From: a virus
Lineage: Duplodnaviria; Heunggongvirae; Uroviricota; Caudoviricetes
Strand: one strand, 5' to 3'
Virus record (IMG/VR): IMGVR_UViG_2660238346_000030
Length of the DNA: 34,158 bases
Positions 288-34,158 of the stretch are shown here, piece after piece (position 1 is the first letter of the stretch; each line of letters begins with the position of its first letter). The position numbers and the translations under genes are program-made. The notes beneath the pieces were generated by a model that saw nothing but the letters and a program-made list of their open reading frames with translations, had not been told where the DNA came from and ran no database searches.

Positions 288-665
288 TTATTGATTTTTT
301 CTGTGCTGTGGTTTAAACAAACTACTGATAAATAAGAAACACAATGCCCCCAGCGCACACCAGAACACCGCACTTAATAACCATGCCAGCTCTTGCCAGA
401 ATGAGCGCGTCGGTGAAAAAAACAGCCGCATAATGAGCATCGAACAGGGTGCCGCCAGCATTGCGCCAAACAGAGGTTTCAGGACTTCTCTACGATGTGA
501 AAAGAAGCTGGCAACTGCACCAGGAAGAATGAAAAATAGCAAACCGATTTCAGGATGCCCGGCAGCCCGAAAAGCGCCTTTCATGTGCGTCGCCAGAAAA
601 AGACACACCACAATGAAGAGGACAAAACAGCAGATTGCCCCCGCCCAACGTTGTTTATGTTTCAC
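288..665 (-). CDS. ybjM: Inner membrane protein YbjM
   Basis: 125-aa hydrophobic ORF convergent with grxA, GTG start; order grxA-ybjM-ybjL matches the E. coli K-12 locus. Confidence 0.8.
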   Translation of the reverse strand: MKHKQRWAGAICCFVLFIVVCLFLATHMKGAFRAAGHPEIGLLFFILPGAVASFFSHRREVLKPLFGAMLAAPCSMLIMRLFFSPTRSFWQELAWLLSAVFWCALGALCFLFISSLFKPQHRKNQ

Positions 666-934
666 TCGTTCCTCCTGACACTGCGTCTATCGAACACATT
701 TTTCGCCAGTGTGGCGTTCAGTAAGATAAAGCCGCTTCGCATTCCATGCTAATATAGGCCAACGCAATTCATATAGCCGTTGATACCTAATGTGATTACA
801 CTAGTAAAATATATTGTTACTTTACTATCGTTTAGGTGCGCTGAATGAATCTGCGCCCTGAATTCTGGTAAAAAACATTATCGTAAATTACCATTTCTTT
901 CAACAGCTTACTAGTAAACAAGAAGTTAGCCTCC

Positions 935-2620
935 GTGAATATAAACGTCGCCGAATTGTTAAATGGGAATTACATTCTGTTATTATTTGTGGTCCTCGCG
1001 CTTGGGCTATGTCTCGGGAAATTACGACTTGGTTCGATCCAACTGGGTAATTCCATTGGCGTTTTAGTCGTATCGCTGTTATTAGGCCAACAACATTTCA
1101 GCATTAACACCGACGCGCTTAATCTTGGCTTTATGCTGTTTATTTTCTGCGTCGGGGTCGAAGCCGGACCGAACTTTTTTTCCATTTTTTTTCGCGATGG
1201 GAAAAATTACCTAATGTTAGCACTGGTGATGGTTGGCAGTGCGCTGGTGATCGCCTTAGGGTTAGGTAAGCTGTTTGGCTGGGATATTGGCCTGACGGCC
1301 GGTATGTTAGCTGGCTCTATGACGTCGACACCGGTTCTGGTCGGTGCTGGCGATACACTGCGTCATTCCGGCATGGAAAGCAGGCAACTCTCACTGGCAC
1401 TGGATAATCTGAGCCTCGGGTATGCCTTAACCTATTTAATCGGTCTGGTGAGTTTGATTGTTGGTGCGCGTTACTTGCCGAAATTGCAGCATCAGGACTT
1501 ACAGACCAGCGCCCAGCAAATCGCCCGCGAACGTGGCCTGGACACTGATGCCAACCGTAAGGTTTATTTACCGGTGATCCGCGCCTACCGCGTCGGCCCG
1601 GAGCTGGTGGCCTGGACCGACGGCAAAAATCTGCGTGAACTGGGTATTTATCGACAAACTGGCTGCTACATTGAACGTATTCGACGTAACGGGATTCTGG
1701 CGAATCCAGACGGTGATGCTGTGCTACAAATGGGCGATGAAATAGCGTTGGTAGGCTATCCCGACGCCCACGCACGACTCGATCCCAGCTTCCGTAACGG
1801 CAAAGAAGTTTTCGATCGTGACCTTCTCGACATGCGTATCGTCACTGAAGAAGTGGTCGTTAAAAACCATAACGCCGTGGGCAAACGTCTCGCACAACTG
1901 AAGTTGACCGATCACGGTTGCTTCCTTAACCGCGTCATTCGTAGCCAGATTGAGATGCCGATAGATGACAACGTCGTGCTTAACAAAGGTGACGTTTTAC
2001 AAGTCAGCGGCGATGCCCGTCGCGTAAAAACCATCGCCGATCGCATCGGCTTTATCTCGATTCACAGCCAGGTCACTGACTTGCTGGCATTCTGCGCCTT
2101 CTTTGTTATTGGGCTGATGATCGGGATGATCACCTTCCAGTTCAGCACATTCAGTTTCGGCATGGGGAACGCTGCCGGGTTGTTATTCGCCGGAATTATG
2201 CTGGGCTTTATGCGCGCTAACCACCCGACCTTCGGTTACATTCCGCAGGGTGCATTAAGCATGGTGAAAGAGTTCGGCTTAATGGTGTTTATGGCAGGCG
2301 TTGGTCTGAGCGCCGGTAGCGGTATTAATAACGGCCTGGGCGCGATTGGCGGTCAGATGTTGATTGCCGGATTGATTGTCAGTCTTGTGCCAGTGGTTAT
2401 CTGTTTCTTGTTCGGTGCTTATGTATTGCGAATGAACCGCGCACTGTTGTTCGGCGCAATGATGGGCGCACGCACCTGCGCGCCGGCAATGGAGATCATC
2501 AGTGATACAGCTCGCAGTAACATCCCGGCGCTGGGCTATGCGGGCACCTATGCAATCGCCAACGTCCTGCTGACGCTGGCAGGGACAATCATCGTCATGG
2601 TATGGCCAGGATTAGGATAA
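935..2620 (+). CDS. ybjL: Putative AAE-family transporter YbjL (two membrane domains flanking TrkA-C-like soluble domains)
   Basis: 561-aa ORF, GTG start, N- and C-terminal polytopic membrane regions with a central soluble region; length and sequence match E. coli YbjL from memory. Confidence 0.9.
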
Positions 2621-2733
2621 AACTGAAGTTGCCCTGAAAATGAAATTTTTTTTGCACAACCGCAGAACTTTTCCGCAGGGCATCAGTCTTAATTAGTGCC
2701 ACTGCTTTTCTTTGATGTCCCCATTTTGTGGAG

Positions 2734-2778
2734 CCCATCAACCCCGCCATTTCGGTTCAAGGTTGATGGGTTTTTTGT
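2734..2778 (+). terminator. Rho-independent terminator downstream of ybjL
   Basis: Stem CCCATCAACC (2734-2743) / GGTTGATGGG (2761-2770) followed by TTTTTT (2771-2776). Confidence 0.6.
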
Positions 2779-2856
2779 TGCCTGAAATTTAAGCTGTTTA
2801 AAATCATGATGTTAGAAACACTGTTTTTTAACGATGGCGACAAAATGGCGGCAGCG

Positions 2857-3075
2857 TCAAAGAGAGAGCGCCACCTGTTCTGATTTCATTGGATGCGGCT
2901 GAACCGGATTTGACTCTTTTGGCGTTGCAATCGAACGAACAAAAGTTTCATGGGTAACAAAAGTATGGCTGCAGTTAATGTTCTGGCACTGGTTGTAACG
3001 CTCTTTGGTCAATGAAGATACCTGAAAACTGCTGCGAGTATGGGCGGCACTTCCACACAGTGGGCAAATCATCAT
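2857..3075 (-). CDS. ogr: Ogr/Delta/B-family zinc-finger late-gene transcriptional activator
   Basis: C-x2-C...C-x4-C zinc-finger pattern (MICPLCGSAAHTRSS...ERYNQCQNINCSHTF) typical of P2 Ogr / 186 B; start chosen at internal ATG with GGGGAG RBS; ORF track gives a longer 2857..3108. Confidence 0.85.
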   Translation of the reverse strand: MMICPLCGSAAHTRSSFQVSSLTKERYNQCQNINCSHTFVTHETFVRSIATPKESNPVQPHPMKSEQVALSL

Positions 3076-3141
3076 TTTTCGAGTTCTCCCCATTTTTGCT
3101 AAATTCACAATAATGATACCGCATTATTCCATTTTGAAAAC

Positions 3142-10145: not shown

Positions 10146-10718
10146 TCAGGGAGATTTATTGTTCTTATTTGCCGGAAATTTTCGATAAATGGTAGAAACG
10201 CCTACATCAAAAATCAGTGCAATACGCTGTCTTGATTCTCCGGCCTCGAGTAAACGCCCAATCTGTGCCCACTGTTCGCTGGTCAACTTAGGACGGCGTC
10301 CACCTACTCTGCCTTTAGCACGAGCTGCAGCCAGCCCCGCCCTGGTACGTTCAACTATCAGTTCGCGTTCCATTTCAGCCAGGGCACCCATGACATGAAA
10401 AAAGAAACGGCCCATTGGGGTGCTGGTATCAATACTGTCAGTCAGGCTTCGGAAATTCACGCCACGCTGGCGCAGCTCTTCTATCAGCGTAACAAGATGC
10501 CGCATACTGCGCCCCAGTCTGTCCAGCTTCCAGACAACCAGCGTGTCTCCTGCCGATAGTGTCCTGAGCAGCTTTTTCAGCCCCGGTCTGTCGGACTTGG
10601 TGCCACTGATTTTATCCTCAAAAATCCGCTCACATCCCGCACAGTTCAGTGCATTGCGTTGCAAATCGGTGTTCTGGTCATTTGTTGACACGCGTACATA
10701 GCCAATAAGCATGATCAT
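10146..10718 (-). CDS. Serine recombinase, DNA invertase of the Hin/Gin/Cin/Pin family
   Basis: 190 aa; N-terminal catalytic motif GYVRVSTNDQ, C-terminal HTH (GESRQRIALIFDVGVSTIYR); sits beside an inverted-repeat-flanked segment carrying alternative tail fibre ends. Confidence 0.9.
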   Translation of the reverse strand: MIMLIGYVRVSTNDQNTDLQRNALNCAGCERIFEDKISGTKSDRPGLKKLLRTLSAGDTLVVWKLDRLGRSMRHLVTLIEELRQRGVNFRSLTDSIDTSTPMGRFFFHVMGALAEMERELIVERTRAGLAAARAKGRVGGRRPKLTSEQWAQIGRLLEAGESRQRIALIFDVGVSTIYRKFPANKNNKSP

Positions 10719-19466: not shown

Positions 19467-20117
19467 TCAGCGGCTGTCATTGCGCAGTCTGCGCTCCAGC
19501 TGCTGTTTGTCTTTTTTCACGCCACAGCGGGGATCGAGCTGTAACGCATGGTTGAGATGATTAAGGGCAGACGCCGGATTGCTTTCACTCAGGACCGCGC
19601 CAATCGCTTTATGCAGACGCGCCCGTGACTGGTCCGGCATATCCAGACCGTCTGTCAGCTCCAGCGTCTGCAGCAACAGATCGGCATCAAAGCCGGTGGT
19701 GGCAAGCATTGCGCTCTGCGCGGCGTCTGCCATTTCCTCTGCCAGCACGGTCTGCACGTTGCGGTTACCCAGCGGCATCACCCAGCCATGACGCAGGGCA
19801 TGACGCCCGATCTCCAGCGCTCCGGCATAATCTCCAGCATCAATGCGCCACAGCATCACGTACATCAGCACGTCATCCTGTTGAGCGCCTCCGGCAGCCA
19901 GGACACCCTCTGCCCAGGCGGCGTACTTCGGCAGCAGCTCCACCTTGATTTCCGCTTTTTTGACCGTGGACTGAACGCCCTTGAGACGGCGGCGGTCTTC
20001 CGCCAGTTGCAGCAGCATCAGGTCATAGCCCGATGCGTGGCGAACACTGCCGCCCTCGCGGGCGGCCTGTTCAGCCTGAACGCGCAGGCGATGCTGCCGT
20101 GCGGGACTCAGGCTCAT
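19467..20117 (-). CDS. M: Terminase small/endonuclease subunit gpM
   Basis: 216 aa, synteny after major capsid gene. Confidence 0.8.
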   Translation of the reverse strand: MSLSPARQHRLRVQAEQAAREGGSVRHASGYDLMLLQLAEDRRRLKGVQSTVKKAEIKVELLPKYAAWAEGVLAAGGAQQDDVLMYVMLWRIDAGDYAGALEIGRHALRHGWVMPLGNRNVQTVLAEEMADAAQSAMLATTGFDADLLLQTLELTDGLDMPDQSRARLHKAIGAVLSESNPASALNHLNHALQLDPRCGVKKDKQQLERRLRNDSR

Positions 20118-20120
20118 GGA

Positions 20121-21179
20121 TTACGCTCCGGTTTCGGCTGCGGCGGCGCTGAAATCACCAATCTGGATGTTTTCCACCAGTGCGGCGCAGCGGTAGTCCT
20201 CAACCACATAGGCTTCGTTAACGGATTCAAAGTTTTCAATCCGGTCACGTTTCGGGTTGTCGATAACTGAACGGCGGCGGGTGTCTTCCTGCCAGTAGAT
20301 GGACAGGTTATCCAGACGGGTGATCAGCAGCGCATTCGGCGGGAAGAACGGCGCACGCACGGCCTGCAGGCCACCCATGCGTTTCTGACTGATGATCATA
20401 TCGGCAGCCAGTTTTTCACTGTTTTCCTGCTCTTTGTTGACCAGCGGGAAATACTTGTCAGACAGCAGTTCACGACCGCAAATCACCACCAGATCGTCAT
20501 CGTCCTGATAGACCACGTCGATAAGCTCATTAACGGCATCCATCACCACGGCGTCCAGGTTGGCATATTCGCCACCTTTCCCGACTTTCACCGCACCCGG
20601 TGTGGTTTCACCGCCCGTGGTGGTGCTGCCCATGACGTGATCCGGTGCATCCTCACGGATTTTCTGCAGCCAGCCTTTATTCACATCCTGCAGTAACGGG
20701 TTTTCGCTACGGTTGGAGGTTTTCGCACGCTTCACGCCGTTAAAGCCGATCATGATGCGGTCCAGTGCCTGACGTTTCACGATGGCGTCACGGATACGCA
20801 CCTGAAAATCCTGAAACTTCGCCCACAGGTCCAGCTTCGCGTAGGTCAGTACCGTGTCAAAGTTGGTCTGCTCGCATTTATATTCCACATCGACCATCAG
20901 CGTCGGATCGACAGGTTCACGCTCTTTCGCGGTGGTATCAGTGGTTCCGGCAATGGTGCTGCCAACTCCCAACCCCAGCAGCTGACCGGACTGCTCAGTC
21001 ACTGGCGTGACGTTAATCAGCGTCAGGAAAGCGGCGGATTGCTGGATCTGGTCTTCCAATGTCTGCTGCACGGACGGCTCTACGGTGAACTTGCTGGACA
21101 GTTCTTCAACTGCCACACCGTTCAGACGCGCCAGTTGCTGCAGGTAAGCGTTAAAAGCAAAGCGGGTATTCTTCTTCAT
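20121..21179 (-). CDS. N: Major capsid protein gpN
   Basis: 352 aa, P2 gpN-like. Confidence 0.88.
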   Translation of the reverse strand: MKKNTRFAFNAYLQQLARLNGVAVEELSSKFTVEPSVQQTLEDQIQQSAAFLTLINVTPVTEQSGQLLGLGVGSTIAGTTDTTAKEREPVDPTLMVDVEYKCEQTNFDTVLTYAKLDLWAKFQDFQVRIRDAIVKRQALDRIMIGFNGVKRAKTSNRSENPLLQDVNKGWLQKIREDAPDHVMGSTTTGGETTPGAVKVGKGGEYANLDAVVMDAVNELIDVVYQDDDDLVVICGRELLSDKYFPLVNKEQENSEKLAADMIISQKRMGGLQAVRAPFFPPNALLITRLDNLSIYWQEDTRRRSVIDNPKRDRIENFESVNEAYVVEDYRCAALVENIQIGDFSAAAAETGA

Positions 21180-21195: not shown

Positions 21196-22029
21196 TCAGC
21201 AATTGGTCAGAGTGTCAGCGGGGGCGTTACCGCCTGTTGCACGCTGGCGGTAGTCCTGGCGGCTGTCTTCTTGGCTCAGCTTGTCCACCAGTTCGTTAAA
21301 GGCGGTCTGCTGTGCCTGCAGGGCAGTCTCCAGCTCAGACAGGCGTTCTTCCTGCTCAGACAGGGATTTTTCGGTGCGCGCACTCAGGTTCTGCTGCTCA
21401 GTGGCGACCAGTTCCACGGCCTTATGCACATCAGAGAACCGGGCGTCATCGGACTGCTCTTTTTTGGTGAACAGCGCCGTGACACGGGCAAACAGGGACG
21501 GTTTGTCATCCTGGATTTCTTCCAGTTCGATCACCGTTTCCTCTGCAGCGGTAAAAAGATTGGCGGGATTCTGCTTGCGGTTTGCCAGCGGGTTATGGGC
21601 TGCACTGGCGCTGAATGTCAGCATTTCAGTGCCCAGACTGGCAGGGTCATCAGTGGCAGCCAGGCCGACCAGGTAGGCTTTGCCCGTATCAGCGAACTTC
21701 GGGCTGACTTCCATAGAGGTGAATAATTTCTGGCCTTTTTTCACCAGCTCCACCAGGGACTCCGTGGGCTCAACGTCGGCATACAGCGCCATCTTGCCTG
21801 CCAGCGGACCTTCCGTGATTTCTTCAGCAAACAGCGCCGTCACTTTGCCGTAGCGGTTAAAGGTGCTGTCCGGCAGATAAGACTTGATGTGCTCAAGGTT
21901 AATCAGCGCGGTGTAAACCGCCGGGTTGTAGCTGGCTGCCATCTGTTCCAGCCATTCACGCTGGATTTCGCGTCCGTCGGTGGTGGCACCTTCCACCCCG
22001 ATGCGAAAACGCTTTGCTTTCACTGTCAT
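21196..22029 (-). CDS. O: Capsid scaffolding protein gpO
   Basis: 277 aa, acidic coiled-coil C-terminal part; divergent from P. Confidence 0.82.
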   Translation of the reverse strand: MTVKAKRFRIGVEGATTDGREIQREWLEQMAASYNPAVYTALINLEHIKSYLPDSTFNRYGKVTALFAEEITEGPLAGKMALYADVEPTESLVELVKKGQKLFTSMEVSPKFADTGKAYLVGLAATDDPASLGTEMLTFSASAAHNPLANRKQNPANLFTAAEETVIELEEIQDDKPSLFARVTALFTKKEQSDDARFSDVHKAVELVATEQQNLSARTEKSLSEQEERLSELETALQAQQTAFNELVDKLSQEDSRQDYRQRATGGNAPADTLTNC

Positions 22030-22171: not shown

Positions 22172-23938
22172 ATGAACACCACACTGACACCCGCAGATCT
22201 CGATCCCCGTCGGCAGGCCATGCTGCTGTACTTTCAGGGATACCGCGTAGCCCGCATTGCTGAAATGCTGGGCGAGAAAGTTGCAACCGTTCACAGCTGG
22301 AAAAAACGCGACAAGTGGGGTGACTATGGGCCGCTGGATCAGATGCAGCTCACCACCGCCGCACGCTACTGCCAGCTCATTATGAAGGAGCACAAAGAAG
22401 GGAAAGATTTCAAAGAAATTGACCTGCTGGCGCGCCAGTCGGAACGCCACGCGCGGATCGGCAAGTTTAACAATGGCGGCAACGAAGCCGACTTAAACCC
22501 TAACGTCGCCAACCGTAACAAAGGCCCGCGCCGTCAGCCGGAAAAGAATGTTTTCACCGATGAACAAATTGAGAAGCTGGAAGAAATTTTCCATTCCTCC
22601 ATGTTTAACTACCAGCGCCACTGGTGGGAAGCCGGAAAAACCAACCGCATCCGCAACCTGCTAAAGTCACGCCAGATCGGCGCGACCTTCTATTTTGCCC
22701 GTGAGGCCCTGATTGACGCCCTGCTTACCGGACGTAACCAGATTTTCCTTTCTGCCAGTAAGGCACAGGCTCACGTCTTTAAGCAGTACATCATCGATTT
22801 CGCCAATGAAGTCGAGGTGGAGCTGAAAGGTGATCCGATGGTGCTTCCTAACGGGGCCACGCTTTACTTCCTCGGCACCAATGCCCGCACGGCCCAGAGT
22901 TACCACGGCAACCTGTATCTGGATGAATATTTCTGGATACCGAAATTCCAGGAGCTGCGCAAAGTGGCTTCCGGTATGGCTATTCACAAAAAATGGCGAC
23001 AGACCTATTTTTCCACGCCATCCAGCCTGACACACAGTGCTTATCCGTTCTGGTCCGGTGCGCTGTTCAACCGAGGGCGCAACAAAGCCGATAAGGTGGA
23101 CATCGACCTGTCCCACAGCAATCTGGCCCCCGGCCTGCTGTGCGCAGACGGGCAGTACCGCCAGATAGTCACTGTGGAAGATGCGGTGCGCGGCGGATGT
23201 AACCTGTTCGACCTTGACCAGTTGCGCATGGAGTACAGCCCGGACGAATACCAGAATCTGCTGATGTGTGAGTTCGTGGACGATCTCGCGTCCGTATTCC
23301 CGCTCAGCGAGCTGCAGGCGTGCATGGTAGACAGCTGGGAAGTCTGGACCGACTTTCATGCACTGGCGCTGCGCCCGTTTGGCTGGCGCGAAGTGTGGAT
23401 CGGTTATGACCCGGCAAAAGGTACGCAGAACGGCGACAGCGCCGGATGCGTGGTGGTGGCACCGCCAGCCGTGCCAGGTGGTAAGTTCCGCATTCTTGAG
23501 CGTCACCAGTGGCGCGGAATGGACTTCCGCGCCCAGGCTGATGCCATTAAAAAACTGACGCAGCAGTACAACGTGACATATATCGGCATCGACTCGACCG
23601 GCGTTGGTCACGGTGTCTACGAGAACGTGAAAGCGTTCTTTCCTGCGGTGCGGGAGTTTGTCTACAACCCCAACGTCAAAAACGCACTGGTGCTCAAGGC
23701 ATACGACATTATCAGCCACCGCCGTCTGGAGTTTGACGCCGGGCACACCGACATTGCGCAATCCTTTATGGCTATCCGTCGCGCCACTACAGCCAGCGGC
23801 AACCGCCCTACCTATGAAGCCAGCCGCAGCGAAGAAGCCAGCCACGCAGATTTGGCCTGGGCAACGATGCACGCACTGTTTAACGAACCGCTGCAGGGCG
23901 AAGCCGCCAATACCAGCAACATTGTGGAGATTTTCTGA
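22172..23938 (+). CDS. P: Terminase large subunit (ATPase-nuclease) gpP
   Basis: 588 aa; ATPase core (KSRQIGATF, LYLDEY) and C-terminal nuclease-like region; divergent from O as in P2. Confidence 0.9.
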   Translation: MNTTLTPADLDPRRQAMLLYFQGYRVARIAEMLGEKVATVHSWKKRDKWGDYGPLDQMQLTTAARYCQLIMKEHKEGKDFKEIDLLARQSERHARIGKFNNGGNEADLNPNVANRNKGPRRQPEKNVFTDEQIEKLEEIFHSSMFNYQRHWWEAGKTNRIRNLLKSRQIGATFYFAREALIDALLTGRNQIFLSASKAQAHVFKQYIIDFANEVEVELKGDPMVLPNGATLYFLGTNARTAQSYHGNLYLDEYFWIPKFQELRKVASGMAIHKKWRQTYFSTPSSLTHSAYPFWSGALFNRGRNKADKVDIDLSHSNLAPGLLCADGQYRQIVTVEDAVRGGCNLFDLDQLRMEYSPDEYQNLLMCEFVDDLASVFPLSELQACMVDSWEVWTDFHALALRPFGWREVWIGYDPAKGTQNGDSAGCVVVAPPAVPGGKFRILERHQWRGMDFRAQADAIKKLTQQYNVTYIGIDSTGVGHGVYENVKAFFPAVREFVYNPNVKNALVLKAYDIISHRRLEFDAGHTDIAQSFMAIRRATTASGNRPTYEASRSEEASHADLAWATMHALFNEPLQGEAANTSNIVEIF

Positions 23939-24663
23939 TGCACTCAACCCCAACTAACCTCATGACCACCGCCAGCCTGCCTGTAGATCGCCCTTTCTTT
24001 GCTTACCAGCATGAATGGAACAGTGGCGCACGCAGCAGAAACCGCGTGCTTACAAAAATGCGTCAGGCTGGCGCGGATTTCTTTTTCGCCTACGAAGCCC
24101 TGAACGATGCACTGCACACCGGACGCAACCAGATTTTTCTGGGCTGCACCCCGGCATCAGCCCTGACCGTCAAAACCTATATATCAGCTTTTTTAAGTGA
24201 GGCAGCAGCCTGGACGCATCTTGGGAAAATAAAATCAGGTAAAGCGCATCTGGAACTCCCAAACGGTGCGGTCATTTATTTTATCGGGCCGGAAAGTCTC
24301 GCCGCCGCGCTCCATGGAAACGTCTACGTGTCAGAGTATGCCTGGGCTGACTCCCCCAAAAATATGATTGCGCTCGCCAAAAGCCTGTCCATGCACGCGC
24401 GCTATCACGCTACCTACTACACCACCCCAAGCCCCAGCCCGGAAGCATGGCAGGAATACAAGAATCTGATCGCCCGCAACAGCACTACCTGCATGACCTT
24501 TACCGCTGATGACGCTGCAGCATCCGGGGCTACGCTCGCAACCGGAGCCGCGCTCTTTGATGATGAATGGCTGAATGACATGAAAAAAGAATTATCACCG
24601 GAGGACTGGAAAATGCTGTTTATGTGCGAATGGCCCCAGGCTGACAAGGAGCAGGCGGCATGA
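23938..24663 (+). CDS. Truncated paralog of the terminase large-subunit ATPase core, translationally coupled between P and Q
   Basis: 241 aa; aligns with the P ATPase core by eye (KMRQAGADFFFAYEALNDALHTGRNQIFL vs KSRQIGATFYFAREALIDALLTGRNQIFL; HGNVYVSEYAW vs HGNLYLDEYFW; LFMCEW vs LLMCEF); start overlaps P stop, stop overlaps Q start. Confidence 0.7.
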   Translation: MHSTPTNLMTTASLPVDRPFFAYQHEWNSGARSRNRVLTKMRQAGADFFFAYEALNDALHTGRNQIFLGCTPASALTVKTYISAFLSEAAAWTHLGKIKSGKAHLELPNGAVIYFIGPESLAAALHGNVYVSEYAWADSPKNMIALAKSLSMHARYHATYYTTPSPSPEAWQEYKNLIARNSTTCMTFTADDAAASGATLATGAALFDDEWLNDMKKELSPEDWKMLFMCEWPQADKEQAA

Positions 24664-25715
24664 GCAAACGTAAAAACAAGAACAACCGCGCAGCGGTGGA
24701 TCACAACGCAGAATCTGGCGGCGCTGCGGCAGAGGCGTTTAGCTTTGGCGACCCGGTGCCGGTGTTAGACCGACGCGAATTGCTGGACTACGTGGAATGC
24801 GTGCAGATGGACCGCTGGTATGAGCCGCCGGTGAGCTTTGACGGACTGGCGCGGACCTATCGCGCCGCCGTGCATCACAGCTCACCGATTGCCGTTAAGC
24901 GTGACATTCTCAGCAGTACCTACATCCCGCACCGCCTGCTCAGCCAGCAGGCTTTTGCCCGTTTCGTACAGGACTATCTGGTGTTCGGTAACGCCTATCT
25001 GGAAAAGCGCACCAACCGGCTCGGCGGCGTTCTCTCACTGGAGCCAGCACTGGCGAAGTACACACGCCGTGGCGTGGACCTCGACACCTACTGGTTTGTG
25101 CAGTATGGCCTGACCACGCAGCCCTATGAATTTACGCAGGGCAACATCTTTCATCTGCTGGAGCCGGATATTAACCAGGAGATTTACGGGCTGCCCGGCT
25201 ATCTCTCCGCCATCCCGTCAACCCTGCTCAACGAGTCCGCAACGCTGTTCCGCCGGAAGTATTACATCAACGGCAGCCATGCGGGTTTCATCATGTACAT
25301 GACCGACGCAGCACAGAATCAGGAGGACGTGAACAATATCCGCCAGGCAATGAAAAGCGCCAAAGGGCCGGGCAACTTCCGTAACCTGTTTATGTACTCA
25401 CCCAACGGTAAAAAGGACGGCATCCAGATCATCCCGTTATCGGAGGTTGCGGCAAAGGATGAGTTTCTGAACATCAAGAACGTGAGCCGCGATGACATGA
25501 TGGCAGCGCACCGCGTACCGCCGCAGATGATGGGCATTATTCCCAACAATACCGGCGGCTTTGGTGATGTGGAAAAGGCCAGCCGCGTCTTTGTCCGCAA
25601 CGAGCTGATGCCGCTGCAGAAGCGACTGCAGGAGCTTAACGACTGGCTTGGAGAAGAAGTGATCCGCTTTGAGCCGTACACGCTGGGACTGACAGAAGAC
25701 AAGCGCAACGACTGA
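24660..25715 (+). CDS. Q: Portal protein gpQ
   Basis: 351 aa, last gene of the packaging operon next to the putative cos region. Confidence 0.88.
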   Translation: MSKRKNKNNRAAVDHNAESGGAAAEAFSFGDPVPVLDRRELLDYVECVQMDRWYEPPVSFDGLARTYRAAVHHSSPIAVKRDILSSTYIPHRLLSQQAFARFVQDYLVFGNAYLEKRTNRLGGVLSLEPALAKYTRRGVDLDTYWFVQYGLTTQPYEFTQGNIFHLLEPDINQEIYGLPGYLSAIPSTLLNESATLFRRKYYINGSHAGFIMYMTDAAQNQEDVNNIRQAMKSAKGPGNFRNLFMYSPNGKKDGIQIIPLSEVAAKDEFLNIKNVSRDDMMAAHRVPPQMMGIIPNNTGGFGDVEKASRVFVRNELMPLQKRLQELNDWLGEEVIRFEPYTLGLTEDKRND

Positions 25716-25750
25716 CCCACCGCACCACGACAACAAGACTACCCCTCACA

Positions 25751-25787
25751 GCGCCCCAGCAGCATTCTGCGGGGCGCTTCTTTTTTT
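25751..25787 (+). terminator. Rho-independent terminator after Q
   Basis: GCGCCCC (25751-25757) / GGGGCGC (25771-25777) stem followed by TTCTTTTTTT. Confidence 0.65.
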
Positions 25788-25869
25788 CTGCCGCTCCCCC
25801 ACCCTCACCAATTGAAGCCGCCAGCGTGCCGGAGATTGCGCCGGATTTTCACCATTTCACCCCGTTGCG

Positions 25870-25888
25870 CGCGCTCGTATCCCCGCTA
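25870..25888. other. Putative cos (cohesive end) site
   Basis: Minus strand reads GGCGTAGCGGGGATACGAG, resembling the 19-nt cohesive ends of P2/186 as I recall them (GGCG.GGCGGGGAAAGCA.); located about 160 bp beyond Q. Confidence 0.3.
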
Positions 25889-25935
25889 CGCCTGCCCGCT
25901 TTATGTAGTGGTTTTCATGCACCTGCATGATCTAC

Positions 25936-25961
25936 GCAAAAGCCCGCCAGTTCTGGCGGGC
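25936..25961 (-). terminator. Putative terminator for the minus-strand SOS operon
   Basis: Stem GCCCGCCAG / CTGGCGGGC with 2-nt loop, followed on the minus strand by TTTTG. Confidence 0.4.
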
Positions 25962-26096
25962 CTTAGCAAAAACGATCCTCAAACGATCATGCGATCTCAT
26001 GCGGCATAGACATGCACTACAGAGCTAACGCCTCGCAAGGGCTCGTTGTTCAACCTTGCTGACGCCAGAAGCAAGTTCAGACGCCAGCAACGTTTC

Positions 26097-26330
26097 TTAA
26101 TGCAGCCAGCTGTCGTCTTCCCACACCTTCTGCATAATTTTCATCACTTGTTTTCTTTCTTCGTCCAGTTGCAGTCCGGTTAGTTCCACACCGTTAGAGC
26201 TACCTTTGCGAATGCGAATTACCGTTTTGGGATACAGGGGGCGCAGATTGCGGTAAAGCTCGGATTCAAGGGCGTCCAGGGTAGACTGGCTAATCTTCTG
26301 CTCTTTATCGATCATTATTTCAATGCGCAT
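26097..26330 (-). CDS. DinI-family protein
   Basis: 78 aa from ATG 26330 with GAGGTGA RBS (ORF track extends to 26402); similar by eye to E. coli DinI (MRIEIMIDK...LDALESEL...KIMQKVWEDDSW); operon preceded by a LexA box. Confidence 0.8.
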   Translation of the reverse strand: MRIEIMIDKEQKISQSTLDALESELYRNLRPLYPKTVIRIRKGSSNGVELTGLQLDEERKQVMKIMQKVWEDDSWLH

Positions 26331-26340
26331 AAAAGTCACC

Positions 26341-26529
26341 TCAGCTGATGACATCCATTGAGCGGTTGTATTCGTGGGTTCTGATTTTTGCCATGAGTTC
26401 ATCAGTCAATTCAGAAACCCACTGCAGAGCCAGCCCCTTCTCTTCATCACTACACTCACTAGCCGCTACAAGCTTAAGAAAAAAATCAATGCGCTGGAGC
26501 TTCAAAGACTCCAAAAAATAGTCCTGCAT
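26341..26529 (-). CDS. Small SOS-inducible protein, candidate antirepressor (Tum/GfoA-like by position)
   Basis: 62 aa from ATG 26529 with AGGAGG RBS (ORF track extends to 26631); first gene of the LexA-boxed operon, 10 nt upstream of the dinI-like gene. Confidence 0.5.
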   Translation of the reverse strand: MQDYFLESLKLQRIDFFLKLVAASECSDEEKGLALQWVSELTDELMAKIRTHEYNRSMDVIS

Positions 26530-26570
26530 CTTTCCTCCTATGACACCACACGCAATACTATATGTATAAC

Positions 26571-26590
26571 CACTGTTTATATTTACAGTA
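26571..26590 (-). promoter_or_regulatory. LexA box (SOS operator) overlapping the promoter of the small-ORF/dinI-like operon
   Basis: CACTGTTTATATTTACAGTA, i.e. CTGT-N8-ACAG with AT-rich spacer, 40-60 bp upstream of the start codon at 26529. Confidence 0.78.
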
Positions 26591-26682
26591 TATAATAATC
26601 TTACTGATGTAAAACGTTTTTTTACGTTCATCAGCCTGATATGCCTGGTATTATTAATAGCACGAATTGTTAACCCGCGTAA

Positions 26683-29097
26683 TTAATACAGGTTCCGCCA
26701 CTGATCATCTTCCTGCAAACGCTGGTTCCGATAGAAGATACGCAGGCCTGCTCCTGACGGAATACTGCCGCCGCGAAGGAGCAAATTGACCTCTTTCTCG
26801 CTGCCATCAAATCCTCTGGACTTCAGTTCATAGACGAGCTGCTGACGCTGATACTCTGTAATTCGCTGTTTGTAGTCTTTACGCCGTTTCGGTTTAACCA
26901 GGCGTAATCTTGCTGCCAGTTCCCGGCGCTCTTTTTTGCTCATACTGTGCAGGTAATCGTGCAACTCCTTGTCATCCATGCGGGTGATATCCGTTCTGGT
27001 ATCCCCATCAGCTGATTTGTCTTTCCCTTGTTGGTTCAAATTTTCAGCAAGGGGACAGTTATTGCCACGAGTCCAAGGGGCGCAAGCGCCCTGGTCGGCT
27101 GCCGCCTCCTGAACGTCAACGGCCTTACGAACCATTTTCCACTTCACTGCATGAGTGCAGATCTTACCCTCTGCAATGGGTGACCAGATGCCATAAATAC
27201 GAATGCCGTGATCGCCATAGGCGGTCGGCTCTTCGTTGATTTCATAAGCGGTTCTGATGAGGTGATATTTACGGGGAACCAGTACGCCGCCCTGCTTCAT
27301 GATGTAGGTGGCAAAACAACCAGCATCAGCTGCAGCCAGAATGGCATCAAGGCGCGGGTTATCCAGTACCGGCGCACCTGCTTTTTTGTCACCCTGTTGC
27401 CTTGCCGCCTGACCAGCCAGCAATCGCAGTTCACGGTAAGCCTGACGCCCCGGAATGCCAAAGAAGCGGAATTGCTGAACACGATGCAGAGACGCCCAGG
27501 CATTAACGTATTCAGCGTTATCACGCAGAGATTTACCCGTTTCCTTGCTGATCTCGCCAGCCAGACCACGCCCGTCAATGTTCTTACTGATGTATTTCGC
27601 GATGTAGCTAGTCGGCGTTCCTTTGCGCGGGTTTATCAGCTCAGACTTAAAGCGTGGCCCCGTGTTATTACCCAGCTCCTCGCGGTCTTCACGGATAGCA
27701 AACTTACGCAACAATGCAGTAATGGCGCGGCGGTCTTTTTTGCGCATGAAACACAACAGGTGCCAGTGAACTGTGCCGTCATGATGCGGCTCAGCCACCC
27801 GCACGCCATACCAGCGCAATCCGGCTTTGTGCATCGCCTTACGAAATGCAGCAAACATGCCGACCAGATAATCACTGCTTTGTCTTACCGTCGCATTTGT
27901 CCAGGTCGGGTTGGGCCTGCCGTTATTTAGCGTGGAATGGAAACGTGACGGACAGGTGATGGTGTAGAAAACGGCGCAGTCACCGCGCATTTCCGCGATA
28001 AGCTCCAGACCTTTAACACAGGCCATCATCTCATTGCGGCGATGCGCAGGGTTGCTGCTGCTGGCGTTTACCACATCCTCCATGTCCAGCGTGTCGCCGT
28101 CTTCGTTCACCAGTTCATGAGAACGGAAAAACTCCAGCGACTTACGGCGCTGCTCACGTTTATGCATCACGGCTTCATAGCTGACATAGGGAGATGCTTT
28201 TTTGCTGACCAGGCAAACAGCACGCAACTGCTCTTCCCGCCATTCACAACGCATCTTCCACAATTTCCGATACCACCAGTCGGCGCACAACATACGCGCC
28301 AGCGAACCCGGAATGAGTTCATAGGGTACGGGTTTACGGCGGTTTCTTTTCCGGCGGAGTTGCTCAAACGCAGGCGGTATGACATCCAGTCGCAGGGTTT
28401 CTGCTGCCACCTTTTCCCATGTCTTGCGGATTTCTTCTGGCTTAACATCATCGGTGGCATACAAATCACCACAAGCGGCATCAAGACACATACTCATATG
28501 CGCAGCGACAAGAGTAGACAGGCGTTTCACCTGATCCTGACTCATTTCAGGCAAGATCAGCAGGCCGTCCAGCCCTTCATGGCTTGCCATAAAGCGAAAA
28601 GAAGTGGATAGCTGACTGTCGCGTACATGCTCCAGTCGTTCCAGACATGGCTTAATCGTCTCACGCAAATAGCGGGAATAAGCCTTTGGCCTGCCCAGGC
28701 TGCTGAAGTATTCAATACGTTGCATCAGCGGCTTGCTGATATGGGAAGGCTGGGCGTTAACGTCCGCCAGTATGACCATGTCCGGATTAAAACGCTGCTG
28801 CTCATGCGCCAGCTTTGCCCGGCTAATGAGCTTATCCTGCTCCATTTCGCGCTGGACAGGATCACGGGATGCATTAAAGAAATAACGCTCCCAGACCTGA
28901 TCACTCAGTGCCTCGCGGCGCAGTTGTTCCTGCTCGTTATCGGCAGCGTACAGAGTGATCAGGTTTGAAAGCGCAGAAACCGGCGCAACTTCCGCCGGGT
29001 CCAGATAAGGGTTAATAGCCTTTTTCGGGCTGTTCCATGAGAATGCTGCGGCGGCCTCGTTAAAGCCGCTGCAGTTGTTCATATCAGCATGGCTCAT
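26683..29097 (-). CDS. A: Replication initiation endonuclease gpA (rolling-circle initiator)
   Basis: 804 aa, last and largest gene of the early operon, P2/186 A-like. Confidence 0.88.
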
Positions 29098-32938: not shown

Positions 32939-33126
32939 CTTTTGCTTTTATATCTGCGTCTAAAATAAAAATGAGCCGCAGGTTAACCGCAAAAGTTACA
33001 TGCTCACATAGCAAAAAGAATAGCCAACTTCATTATGGCTTCAGTGAGATGTATGGTCGTAGGATTTCATACATTGACACTGGTTATACATACAGTAAAA
33101 ATGCTCTCTACTGGAGGGCATTTTTT

Positions 33127-34158
33127 ATGGCAGTACGAAAACTCACCACAGGGAAATGGCTTTGCGAATGTTACCCCGCCGGACGTAGTGGGCGTCGTGT
33201 GCGTAAACAATTCGCCACCAAAGGCGAAGCTCTGGCTTTTGAGCGCCACACGATGGAAGAAACCGAAGCAAAGCCCTGGCTGGGTGAATCAGTGGATCGT
33301 CGAACACTGAAAGACGTAGTTGAGCTATGGTTCAAACTACATGGTAAATCTCTAACCGCTGGGCAGCATGTCTATGACAAATTGCTGTTGATGGTTGACG
33401 CTCTGGGCAATCCCCTTGCAACCGATCTCACATCTAAAATGTTTGCCCACTATCGAGATAAACGCCTGACGGGTGAGATCTACTTCAGCGAGAAATGGAA
33501 AAAAGGAGCAAGCCCAGTCACTATTAACCTGGAGCAAAGCTATCTTAGTAGTGTTTTTAGCGAACTATCCCGCCTGGGCGAATGGTCGTATCCGAACCCA
33601 CTGGAGAACATGCGAAAATTCACCATCGCAGAAAAAGAGATGGCATGGCTTACCCATGAACAGATTGTTGAATTGCTGGCTGATTGTAAACGTCAGGACC
33701 CAATTCTGGCACTGGTAGTTAAGATATGCTTAAGCACTGGCGCACGCTGGCGTGAAGCCGTAAATCTTACCCGCTCACAGGTGACCAAATACCGAATTAC
33801 CTTTGTAAGAACGAAGGGGAAGAAAAACAGAAGCATCCCTATCAGTAAAGAGCTTTACGAAGAGATCATGGCGCTTGATGGGTTCAATTTCTTCACAGAC
33901 TGCTATTTTCAATTTTTATCCGTGATGGAAAAAACGTCTATCGTGCTCCCTCGCGGTCAACTGACACACGTTCTGCGCCATACGTTTGCGGCGCATTTTA
34001 TGATGTCGGGTGGAAATATCCTTGCTTTGCAAAAAATCCTCGGACATCACGACATAAAAATGACTATGCGTTACGCACATCTGGCACCGGATCACCTGGA
34101 AACTGCATTACGGTTTAATCCGCTGGCAACACTACCAACATCAATAGCAAGTTTTTGA
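33127..34158 (+). CDS. int: Tyrosine integrase (P2/186 Int family)
   Basis: Start at ATG 33127 with GGAGGG RBS (ORF track extends to 32971); C-terminal catalytic motifs (TGARWREA, HVLRHTFA, MRYAHL with catalytic Tyr); stop codon is the last 3 nt of the window. Confidence 0.9.
   Translation: MAVRKLTTGKWLCECYPAGRSGRRVRKQFATKGEALAFERHTMEETEAKPWLGESVDRRTLKDVVELWFKLHGKSLTAGQHVYDKLLLMVDALGNPLATDLTSKMFAHYRDKRLTGEIYFSEKWKKGASPVTINLEQSYLSSVFSELSRLGEWSYPNPLENMRKFTIAEKEMAWLTHEQIVELLADCKRQDPILALVVKICLSTGARWREAVNLTRSQVTKYRITFVRTKGKKNRSIPISKELYEEIMALDGFNFFTDCYFQFLSVMEKTSIVLPRGQLTHVLRHTFAAHFMMSGGNILALQKILGHHDIKMTMRYAHLAPDHLETALRFNPLATLPTSIASF

Follow-up and report, generated by a model that had tools for sequence, protein, structure and literature searches.

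An ATPase-domain-only terminase paralogue at the terminase/portal junction of a P2-like prophage: an apparent diverged relative of the phage 186 W protein

In P2 itself, as in roughly 96% of its sequenced relatives, the gene for the large terminase subunit (P) is directly followed by the portal gene (Q). Phage 186 departs from this layout: GenBank record U32222.1 places a coding sequence for a 248-amino-acid (aa) product annotated “W protein; similar to Orf12” (AAC34147.1, 1215..1961) between Orf12, the homologue of P2 P, and Orf2, the homologue of P2 Q, with overlaps at 1961/1961 and 1215-1218. In PSP3, gp2 (NP_958057.1), annotated as “similar to 186 W,” occupies the same P/Q junction, again with overlapping stop and start codons. 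This report concerns a 726-bp open reading frame (ORF), hereafter X, found at the corresponding position (23938..24663, plus strand) of the virus record IMGVR_UViG_2660238346_000030, a stretch of 34,158 nt (hereafter the window) which carries a P2-like prophage (Peduoviridae, 186/Fels-2 type) encoding CI, CII (CP76), a Dam methylase and a gpA-type replication protein. X codes for a 241-aa paralogue of the large terminase subunit that comprises the ATPase domain only, and it appears to be a diverged, 186 W-like member of a family of accessory genes.

X is flanked by the gene for gpP (22172..23938, plus strand), a 588-aa large terminase subunit in which Pfam recognizes a Terminase_5 N-terminal domain, a Terminase_6N ATPase and a Terminase_6C nuclease, and by the last gene of the operon, which codes for the 351-aa portal protein gpQ (24660..25715, plus strand). 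An initial annotation of the window, made from its letters and its list of ORFs, had described both junctions as overlapping, and the raw sequence bears this out: the P stop codon (TGA, 23936-23938) overlaps the X start codon (ATG, 23938-23940), and the X stop codon (TGA, 24661-24663) overlaps the Q start codon (ATG, 24660-24662). Each overlap is preceded by a Shine-Dalgarno (SD) sequence. The coupling signal of X (23926..23940, plus strand) consists of GGAG (23926-23929), an 8-nt spacer and TGATG (23936-23940), and that of gpQ (24646..24663, plus strand), which lies inside the 3′ end of X, consists of AAGGAG (24646-24651), an 8-nt spacer and ATGA (24660-24663). A promoter and terminator scan inside P-X-Q returned signals at chance level only. 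Given the stop/start overlaps, the SDs and this lack of internal signals above chance, P-X-Q can be regarded as one translationally coupled operon. Expression of X as a frameshift fusion with P was ruled out, since ATTTTCTGATG offers no slippery site and an SD of its own precedes X.

Residues 21-232 of X align with residues 145-368 of gpP at 33% identity (BLASTP, E 1e-34). Whereas gpP matches Terminase_5, Terminase_6N and Terminase_6C (2.8e-49), X matches Terminase_6N only (1.2e-14); it has neither the Terminase_5 N-terminal domain nor the C-terminal RNase-H-like nuclease domain and ends at about the equivalent of gpP residue 370, so that the alignment with the ATPase core made by eye in the initial annotation stands. 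X has a match at 3e-93 to PHROG 3746, “terminase large subunit,” and its NCBI annotation already reads “terminase large subunit domain-containing protein.” NCBIfam contains no model for X, 186 W or their relatives. A confident AlphaFold2 model of X based on 26 homologues (predicted local distance difference test score, pLDDT, 85.6; predicted template modelling score 0.86) has as its best structural matches in the PDB the terminase ATPase domains of T4 gp17, P74-26 and D6E (E ~1e-8, template modelling score 0.63-0.71); X is thus modelled as a whole ATPase domain of a terminase. These solved domains (2o0h, 4znl and 5oea, respectively) share the predicted fold of X, including the lid subdomain, at 10-15% identity; they are engineered fragments of full-length enzymes, in contrast to X, which is a natural stand-alone gene product. 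Between X alleles of 241 aa and 235 aa, the difference is a 6-codon indel (AASGATLATGAALF vs. AAS------GA.LF; window 24504-24560, X residues ~190-208) that falls in the only internal low-confidence stretch of the model (pLDDT 67-71).

Sequence searches of the PDB with an X profile and with gpP retrieved no terminase, hence motifs were mapped by the fold match and by their spacing as compared with T4 gp17. In P2-type terminases, Walker A is deviant, K-S-R-Q-I-G-A-T, and Walker B is of the form hhhDE; in the gpP of the window these are KSRQIGAT at residues 165-172 and LYLDEY with D251/E252. The gpP-type spacings YQ(+18)SRQ and D(+30)STP agree with those of T4 gp17, for which we take the reference positions to be Q143, S161, D255 and T285. 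In X, the deviant Walker A motif or P-loop reads K40-M-R-Q-A-G-A-D47 (24055..24078, plus strand), the Walker-B strand reads V129-Y-V-S-E-Y134 (24322..24339, plus strand) with S132 in the place of the Mg-site Asp of gpP, and the C (coupling) motif is retained as T162-T-P-S165 (24421..24432, plus strand; STPS in gpP). The loss of the Walker-B Asp (LYLDEY in gpP, VYVSEY in X) had been pointed out in the initial annotation and was confirmed; what had been missed is the change at the end of Walker A (KSRQIGAT to KMRQAGAD), the family-wide conservation of both changes, and the presence of an ORF of this kind in 186 and PSP3.

Both changes characterize the large sub-clade of X. D47, which replaces the Walker-A Thr of gpP, stands without exception in the 25 aligned family members, and E133, the equivalent of the catalytic Glu, is invariant in the sub-clade alignment, while the Walker-B Asp has become Ser or, in some lineages, Gly, Ala, Pro or Leu. 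The 33 invariant columns of the X alignment are concentrated in the nucleotide pocket (YQ, K40/R42/Q43/G45/A46/D47, G62-Q65 of the TGRNQ strand, E133 and T159-S165), and the pocket being the best conserved part of the protein, the active site gives the impression of remodelling and not of decay. The full-length homologues retrieved have T/S, D and E without exception (66/66), and Walker-A Asp is never found together with Walker-B Asp in short proteins (0/65). X thus has in common with the gpP of P2-like phages the ATPase core, the YQ adenine motif, the P-loop K/R/Q/G, the TGRNQ strand, the catalytic Glu and the C-motif, and differs from it by the lack of the N-terminal helix-turn-helix-like domain and of the nuclease, by the Walker-A Thr to Asp and Walker-B Asp to Ser replacements, and by a several-fold faster evolution. 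Of the ASCE set of functional large terminases it keeps the Glu only, and neither the Walker-A Ser/Thr nor the Walker-B Asp. For the trans-acting arginine finger of terminases, two positions have been put forward (PMC5727402); no X-type sequence has the alpha2-beta3 Arg of gpP (NARTAQ), and most have an Arg in the alpha3-beta4 loop. Judged by its residues, X is plausibly catalytically impaired. Other short paralogues range from canonical, as in 186 W (KSRQIGAT, VYLDEF), to degenerate, as in some metagenomic proteins (QSRLIGTS/VYLDHV and EARQIGAT/VIVQDF), which indicates that hydrolysis is not conserved by the family as a whole.

The kinship of X with 186 W and PSP3 gp2 is suggested by position, boundaries, intermediates and shared derived characters. 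All three proteins are encoded at the P/Q junction on the same strand as P and Q, comprise about 240-250 aa, contain Terminase_6N only, and have the same N- and C-terminal boundaries; X has the boundaries of the family at large (~225-255 aa, a start just before the YQ motif and an end just after the lid subdomain). W proteins of EtG, Midge, SI22, SW9 and BIS20 are 92-96% identical to 186 W, and ORFs of two Yersinia enterocolitica phages are 45-46% identical to 186 W; identity of Yersinia homologues to X is 37%. A Yersinia protein, hereafter YenX, forms a bridge: its score with X (135 bits) exceeds that of X with any P protein (≤117 bits), its score with 186 W (199 bits) exceeds its own with any P protein (≤162 bits), and it shares the derived motifs of X, GAD ... 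[S/G]EYAWA. Against this kinship, the direct comparison of X with 186 W (31%, 107 bits) scores below that of X with its own P (33%, 117 bits), and the clade that unites all short paralogues of Enterobacterales in a neighbour-joining tree has a bootstrap support of only 45%, such that the tree gives no proof. Furthermore, the 20 N-terminal residues of X differ from those of 186 W, and 186 W keeps the canonical GAT and DE whereas X has GAD and SE. X is therefore best described as belonging to a variant subfamily and not as a typical member; on position, boundaries, intermediates and derived motifs we class it as a diverged variant of the 186 W/PSP3 gp2 family. An origin by horizontal acquisition from another terminase lineage was ruled out, given that X lies at much the same distance (30-34%) from every P protein.

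It follows that X is not a new kind of gene, since its counterpart in 186 has been annotated since the 1990s. The premise of the initial annotation that P is always directly followed by Q fails for 186, PSP3, EtG, SW9, BIS20, Midge and the two Y. enterocolitica phages, all of which have an extra ORF at this junction. The ORF is thus a conserved and annotated component of such packaging operons, which goes part of the way towards the refutation that the initial annotation had named, and not a functionally characterized one: literature searches found no paper discussing the X ORF, and no published mechanistic function for W turned up. Even the name is ambiguous. U32222.1 attaches the gene name W to both the 186 ORF and the portal gene, and the record of Yersinia phage vB_YpM_MHG75 (hereafter MHG75) calls its portal gene “W gene”; with the name on both ORF and portal in GenBank, equating the essential genetic gene W with the 186 W ORF is unsupported.

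The ORF is kept as an intact gene in many Enterobacterales, and it is rare. A search of 5.8 billion proteins returned 55 relatives of 220-254 aa whose identity runs from 98% to 37% and which belong to Citrobacter, Salmonella, Escherichia, Leclercia, Klebsiella, Phytobacter, Pantoea, Yersinia, Limnobaculum and Buttiauxella. Those of 37-39% identity (Y. enterocolitica, Buttiauxella) occupy the P/Q junction as well, with the same overlaps. A W/X ORF is carried by ~20 of 489 P2-like phage records. Among 5,426 complete Escherichia coli genomes, 1,240 match a P-X-Q query; an X-type ORF is carried by 21 genomes and a 186-W-type ORF by 8. A scan of genome contigs for X-specific peptide patterns returned three loci only, in Yersinia frederiksenii, Y. 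proxima and Serratia proteamaculans, a number that does not amount to a survey.

Two phages are natural knock-outs. MHG75 is nearly identical to 186 in P (98.8%) and Q (95.9%), and the W ORF is cleanly absent, a difference of ~776 bp (MHG75, 313-3130 of locus L030, vs. 186, 196-3730 of L023). Likewise, the P of Klebsiella phage Kp4849-2 is 95% identical to that of the window and no X follows it; the P stop codon overlaps the portal start codon in the same GGAGATTTTTTGATG context, and similarity to the window breaks off with the P stop codon and is regained, at 82%, from 69 nt into Q. This junction shows that X lies precisely where P and Q were formerly coupled and that its last codons bring a new SD for Q. 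Since near-identical viable phages do without it, X/W is an accessory gene and not a required part of the motor; a subunit that the motor cannot do without is unlikely and was rejected on account of these phages. Among carriers of X or W, Yersinia phage vB_YpM_MLG42 (hereafter MLG42; locus L002), vB_YenM_56.17 and vB_YenM_201.16 form plaques (PMC11126057, PMC9224151). Virions of the X-bearing isolate MLG42 were described as about twice the size of those of co-isolated Eganvirus phages, with a head of 128 nm and a tail of 234 nm for a 31-kb genome (PMC11126057). This is the only phenotype reported for an X-bearing phage and is probably a measurement or preparation issue. In phage 500465-1, the X copy is in pieces and the portal gene is likewise broken; this is likely a sequencing error or decay and uninformative.

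X is a real gene under purifying selection that evolves faster than every other head gene. Across E. coli and Yersinia-phage alleles, its ratio of nonsynonymous (dN) to synonymous (dS) substitutions is 0.12-0.23 at dS 0.13-0.8, compared with 0.01-0.08 for P and 0.01-0.09 for Q in the same set. Between the window, Yersinia and Buttiauxella lineages, X proteins are 38-41% identical, as compared with 62-70% for P, 66-72% for Q and 47-60% for M, N and O. The view of the initial annotation that X is an old, diverged paralogue is upheld by a dN/dS of ~0.2 and by homologues down to 37% identity; a pseudogene or relic is ruled out by the same ratio, and an assembly artefact or recent duplication by the 33% identity to P and the conservation across genera. 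The history of the operon is mosaic. When window positions 22172-25715 were compared with loci L003 and L026-L029, dS relative to E. coli A38 was 0.21 for P, 0.76 for X and 1.2 for Q, and relative to strain 873.10 it was 0.44, 0.13 and 0.11, respectively; this pattern of synonymous divergence places a recombination breakpoint at the P/X boundary, with X inherited together with the portal gene and not with the terminase gene. The G+C content at third codon positions (GC3) is lower in X (0.595) than in P (0.686) and Q (0.727).

The 186 W-like proteins are part of a wider set of short terminase paralogues. A profile search of 1.84 billion cluster representatives recovered 549 relatives, among which dozens of distinct proteins of 220-290 aa are interleaved with full-length terminases. 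Some lie between P and Q: P0062, with canonical motifs, P0144 and P0187, both degenerate, and probably P0064, which is on a short contig whose flanking ORFs were not identified. The phage that encodes P0144 has a Toprim-type replication module instead of a gpA-type one. In distant P2-like lineages, the paralogues between P and Q (L022, 1419-2237; L020, 5001-5699) have degenerate motifs (VIVQDF, VYLDHV) and resemble their own P most (206 and 160 bits, respectively) and other short paralogues less, which suggests either independent duplications at the same junction or gene conversion; neighbour-joining support for L022 is 64%. A sister subfamily, to which P0105 and P0098 belong (“WQ...GAD/GSS...SEW”), is encoded in the early operon (L013, 5001-5750; L016, 5001-5696; L017, 756-1451), 1-3 small ORFs downstream of gpA and beside the gpA-gpQ region, a known defence hotspot (PMC9122126). 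Its members share the motif WQ...GAD or GSS...[S/P]EW...SSRS, and phages that carry them have a normal P directly followed by Q; none was found in the sequenced-phage collection.

What such a protein might do can be approached by analogy. In ring and clamp ATPases, inactive paralogous subunits such as the clamp-loader delta-prime and F1 alpha keep the fold and often the nucleotide pocket, have lost catalytic residues and are encoded in the same operon as their active partners, as X appears to be; they differ from it in being obligatory and stoichiometric, whereas X is dispensable and rare. Our tentative preference, held at somewhat less than even confidence, is that X is an accessory, nuclease-less and hydrolysis-impaired mimic of the gpP ATPase that tunes the packaging motor. 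X would bind nucleotide and hydrolyse ATP poorly or not at all. It would lack the domains for DNA recognition, small-terminase binding and cutting, and would occupy the surfaces that the gpP ATPase domain offers to neighbouring gpP subunits in the pentameric motor, or perhaps to the portal. X would then act as a non-cutting, non-firing accessory subunit that tunes the assembly or the activity of the motor and is not required for packaging. As the isolated ATPase domain of the D6E terminase forms pentamers (PMC5727402), a position of X at ATPase interfaces of gpP or the portal is the simplest model.

Several observations weigh against this reading. E. coli X alleles that are only ~75% identical to that of the window adjoin a nearly unchanged gpP (window vs. 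A38: dN 0.151 for X and 0.002 for P), which disfavours tight co-adaptation between the two proteins. Finally, the patchiness of the gene, its fast evolution and its early-operon sister subfamily, beside the defence hotspot, would suit a gene of conflict or counter-defence no less well than a motor regulator.

The main rival to a motor accessory is a gene of conflict, in which X would be a decoy of the terminase ATPase domain that titrates or blunts a host or satellite factor directed at that domain or sensing it, for example a putative terminase inhibitor or a sensor of the Avs-type STAND family, which recognizes large terminases, and has no role in packaging; we hold this to be unlikely. The gene is rare and patchy even among near-identical phages, it outpaces every head gene with a dN/dS 3-10 times that of P and Q, and its catalytic motifs, canonical in 186 W, are remodelled in X and degenerate in the L020 and L022 types, which implies that the fold is kept and not catalysis. 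The related subfamily next to the gpA-gpQ defence hotspot points the same way, as do two links to Avs sensors: AlphaFold-Multimer predicts that KpAvs2 contacts a large terminase at its ATPase domain, and the terminase, at full length, co-purifies with KpAvs2 (PMC11564622), while an Avs3-bound terminase (8dgc) is among the structural matches of the X model. However, an Avs sensor should be set off and not blocked by a faithful mimic, a late and translationally coupled expression gives X no head start over gpP, and a passive decoy has no need for a strictly conserved nucleotide pocket. Moreover, X, 186 W, the Yersinia X and the early-operon paralogues match no PADLOC-DB model at E up to 0.01, and the literature search found no described anti-defence protein of this kind. 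The narrower version raised in the initial annotation, a decoy against satellites of the P4 type, found no evidence in its favour and is further disfavoured in that W-bearing phage 186 is said to be a competent P4 helper.

In its broadest form, the conflict reading would make X-like copies a recurrent counter-measure of P2-like phages, with at least two origins at the P/Q junction and one move to the early operon, which serve as decoys or antagonists of factors that recognize the terminase ATPase (e.g., Avs) and in which the GAD/SE combination would let the mimic be bound without working or triggering. We consider this generalization rather improbable.

More doubtful still is the possibility that X is an active ATPase whose carboxylate has moved from Walker B to Walker A, and thus a working extra subunit for the motor or for maturation, e.g., an assembly or portal-docking factor driven by ATP. 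The mutual exclusion of Walker-A and Walker-B Asp in the 65 short proteins, the invariance of the catalytic Glu, the P-loop Lys/Arg, the YQ and the C-motif, and a site more constrained than the rest of the protein would all be expected of it. Yet the residue in Walker B varies within the clade (S, G, A, P, L), and in some members Walker A has gone back to Ser without the Asp being regained, which looks like relaxation and not like a precise compensatory pair; one candidate trans-finger Arg (alpha2-beta3, NARTAQ) is absent from all X-type sequences, and the gene is dispensable. We know of no precedent for a Walker-A/B carboxylate swap that supports hydrolysis in ASCE ATPases.

That X is a functionless leftover of a partial tandem duplication of P, with its ends kept for translational coupling of the portal gene, would account for a start exactly at the portal-start site of X-less relatives, a 3′ end that holds the portal SD, dispensability and a GC3 below that of P and Q, and is nonetheless highly improbable, being already contradicted by a dN/dS of ~0.2 over dS up to 0.8, by ORFs that stay intact and keep their length down to 37% identity across several Enterobacterales families, by the 33 invariant columns concentrated in the nucleotide pocket, and by similar ORFs of apparently independent origin in distant P2-like lineages.

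The remainder of the window is that of a P2-like prophage. Its head module has the usual divergent layout, with the small terminase gene M (19467-20117), the capsid gene N (20121-21179) and the scaffold gene O (21196-22029) on the minus strand and P, X and Q on the plus strand. The left flank consists of host genes (288-2620; a ybjM-like membrane protein and an Asp-Al_Ex/TrkA_C transporter), and the integrase gene at the right end (32971-34158) runs off the edge, which puts the right attachment site outside the window. A serine recombinase (Resolvase and HTH_7; 10146-10718, minus strand) encoded among the tail-fibre genes is probably a Gin/Cin-type invertase that switches tail-fibre ends. The window contains no tRNA gene, and the cos sequence of 186 is absent downstream of its portal gene. 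The gpA-gpQ hotspot is short here (25716-26683), with a DinI-like gene (26097-26402) and a 96-aa ORF. In close relatives (L003, 10256-11813; L026, 3664-3710; L001, 5797-6225; L016, 5967-7367; L008, 8715-9185), its cargo comprises a DarT and macro-domain pair or proteins with a SEFIR domain, a TIR domain, a KAP NTPase or a SocA/Panacea domain.

What seems to be undescribed is the conserved Thr to Asp and Asp to Ser rearrangement, the breadth of the family and its possibly recurrent origin, the early-operon subfamily, and the natural knock-outs. The analysis also returns to an old loose end, the 186 “W protein,” annotated since the 1990s without a mechanism and with a gene W assignment that is inconsistent between records; for annotation, it means that ORFs of short paralogues should not carry the name “terminase large subunit.” Packaging motors are treated as homomeric rings of large terminase, and a family of P2-like phages also encodes, in the same operon, a natural copy of the ATPase domain only, which is conserved, fast-evolving and dispensable and whose metal site is consistently rearranged in one large branch. 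X is a natural probe of how terminase rings assemble and of how many nuclease- or ATPase-active subunits they need, as well as a test case for the evolution of pseudo-enzymes among P-loop ATPases. Should X prove to be a gene of conflict instead, it would represent a new class of phage counter-defence.

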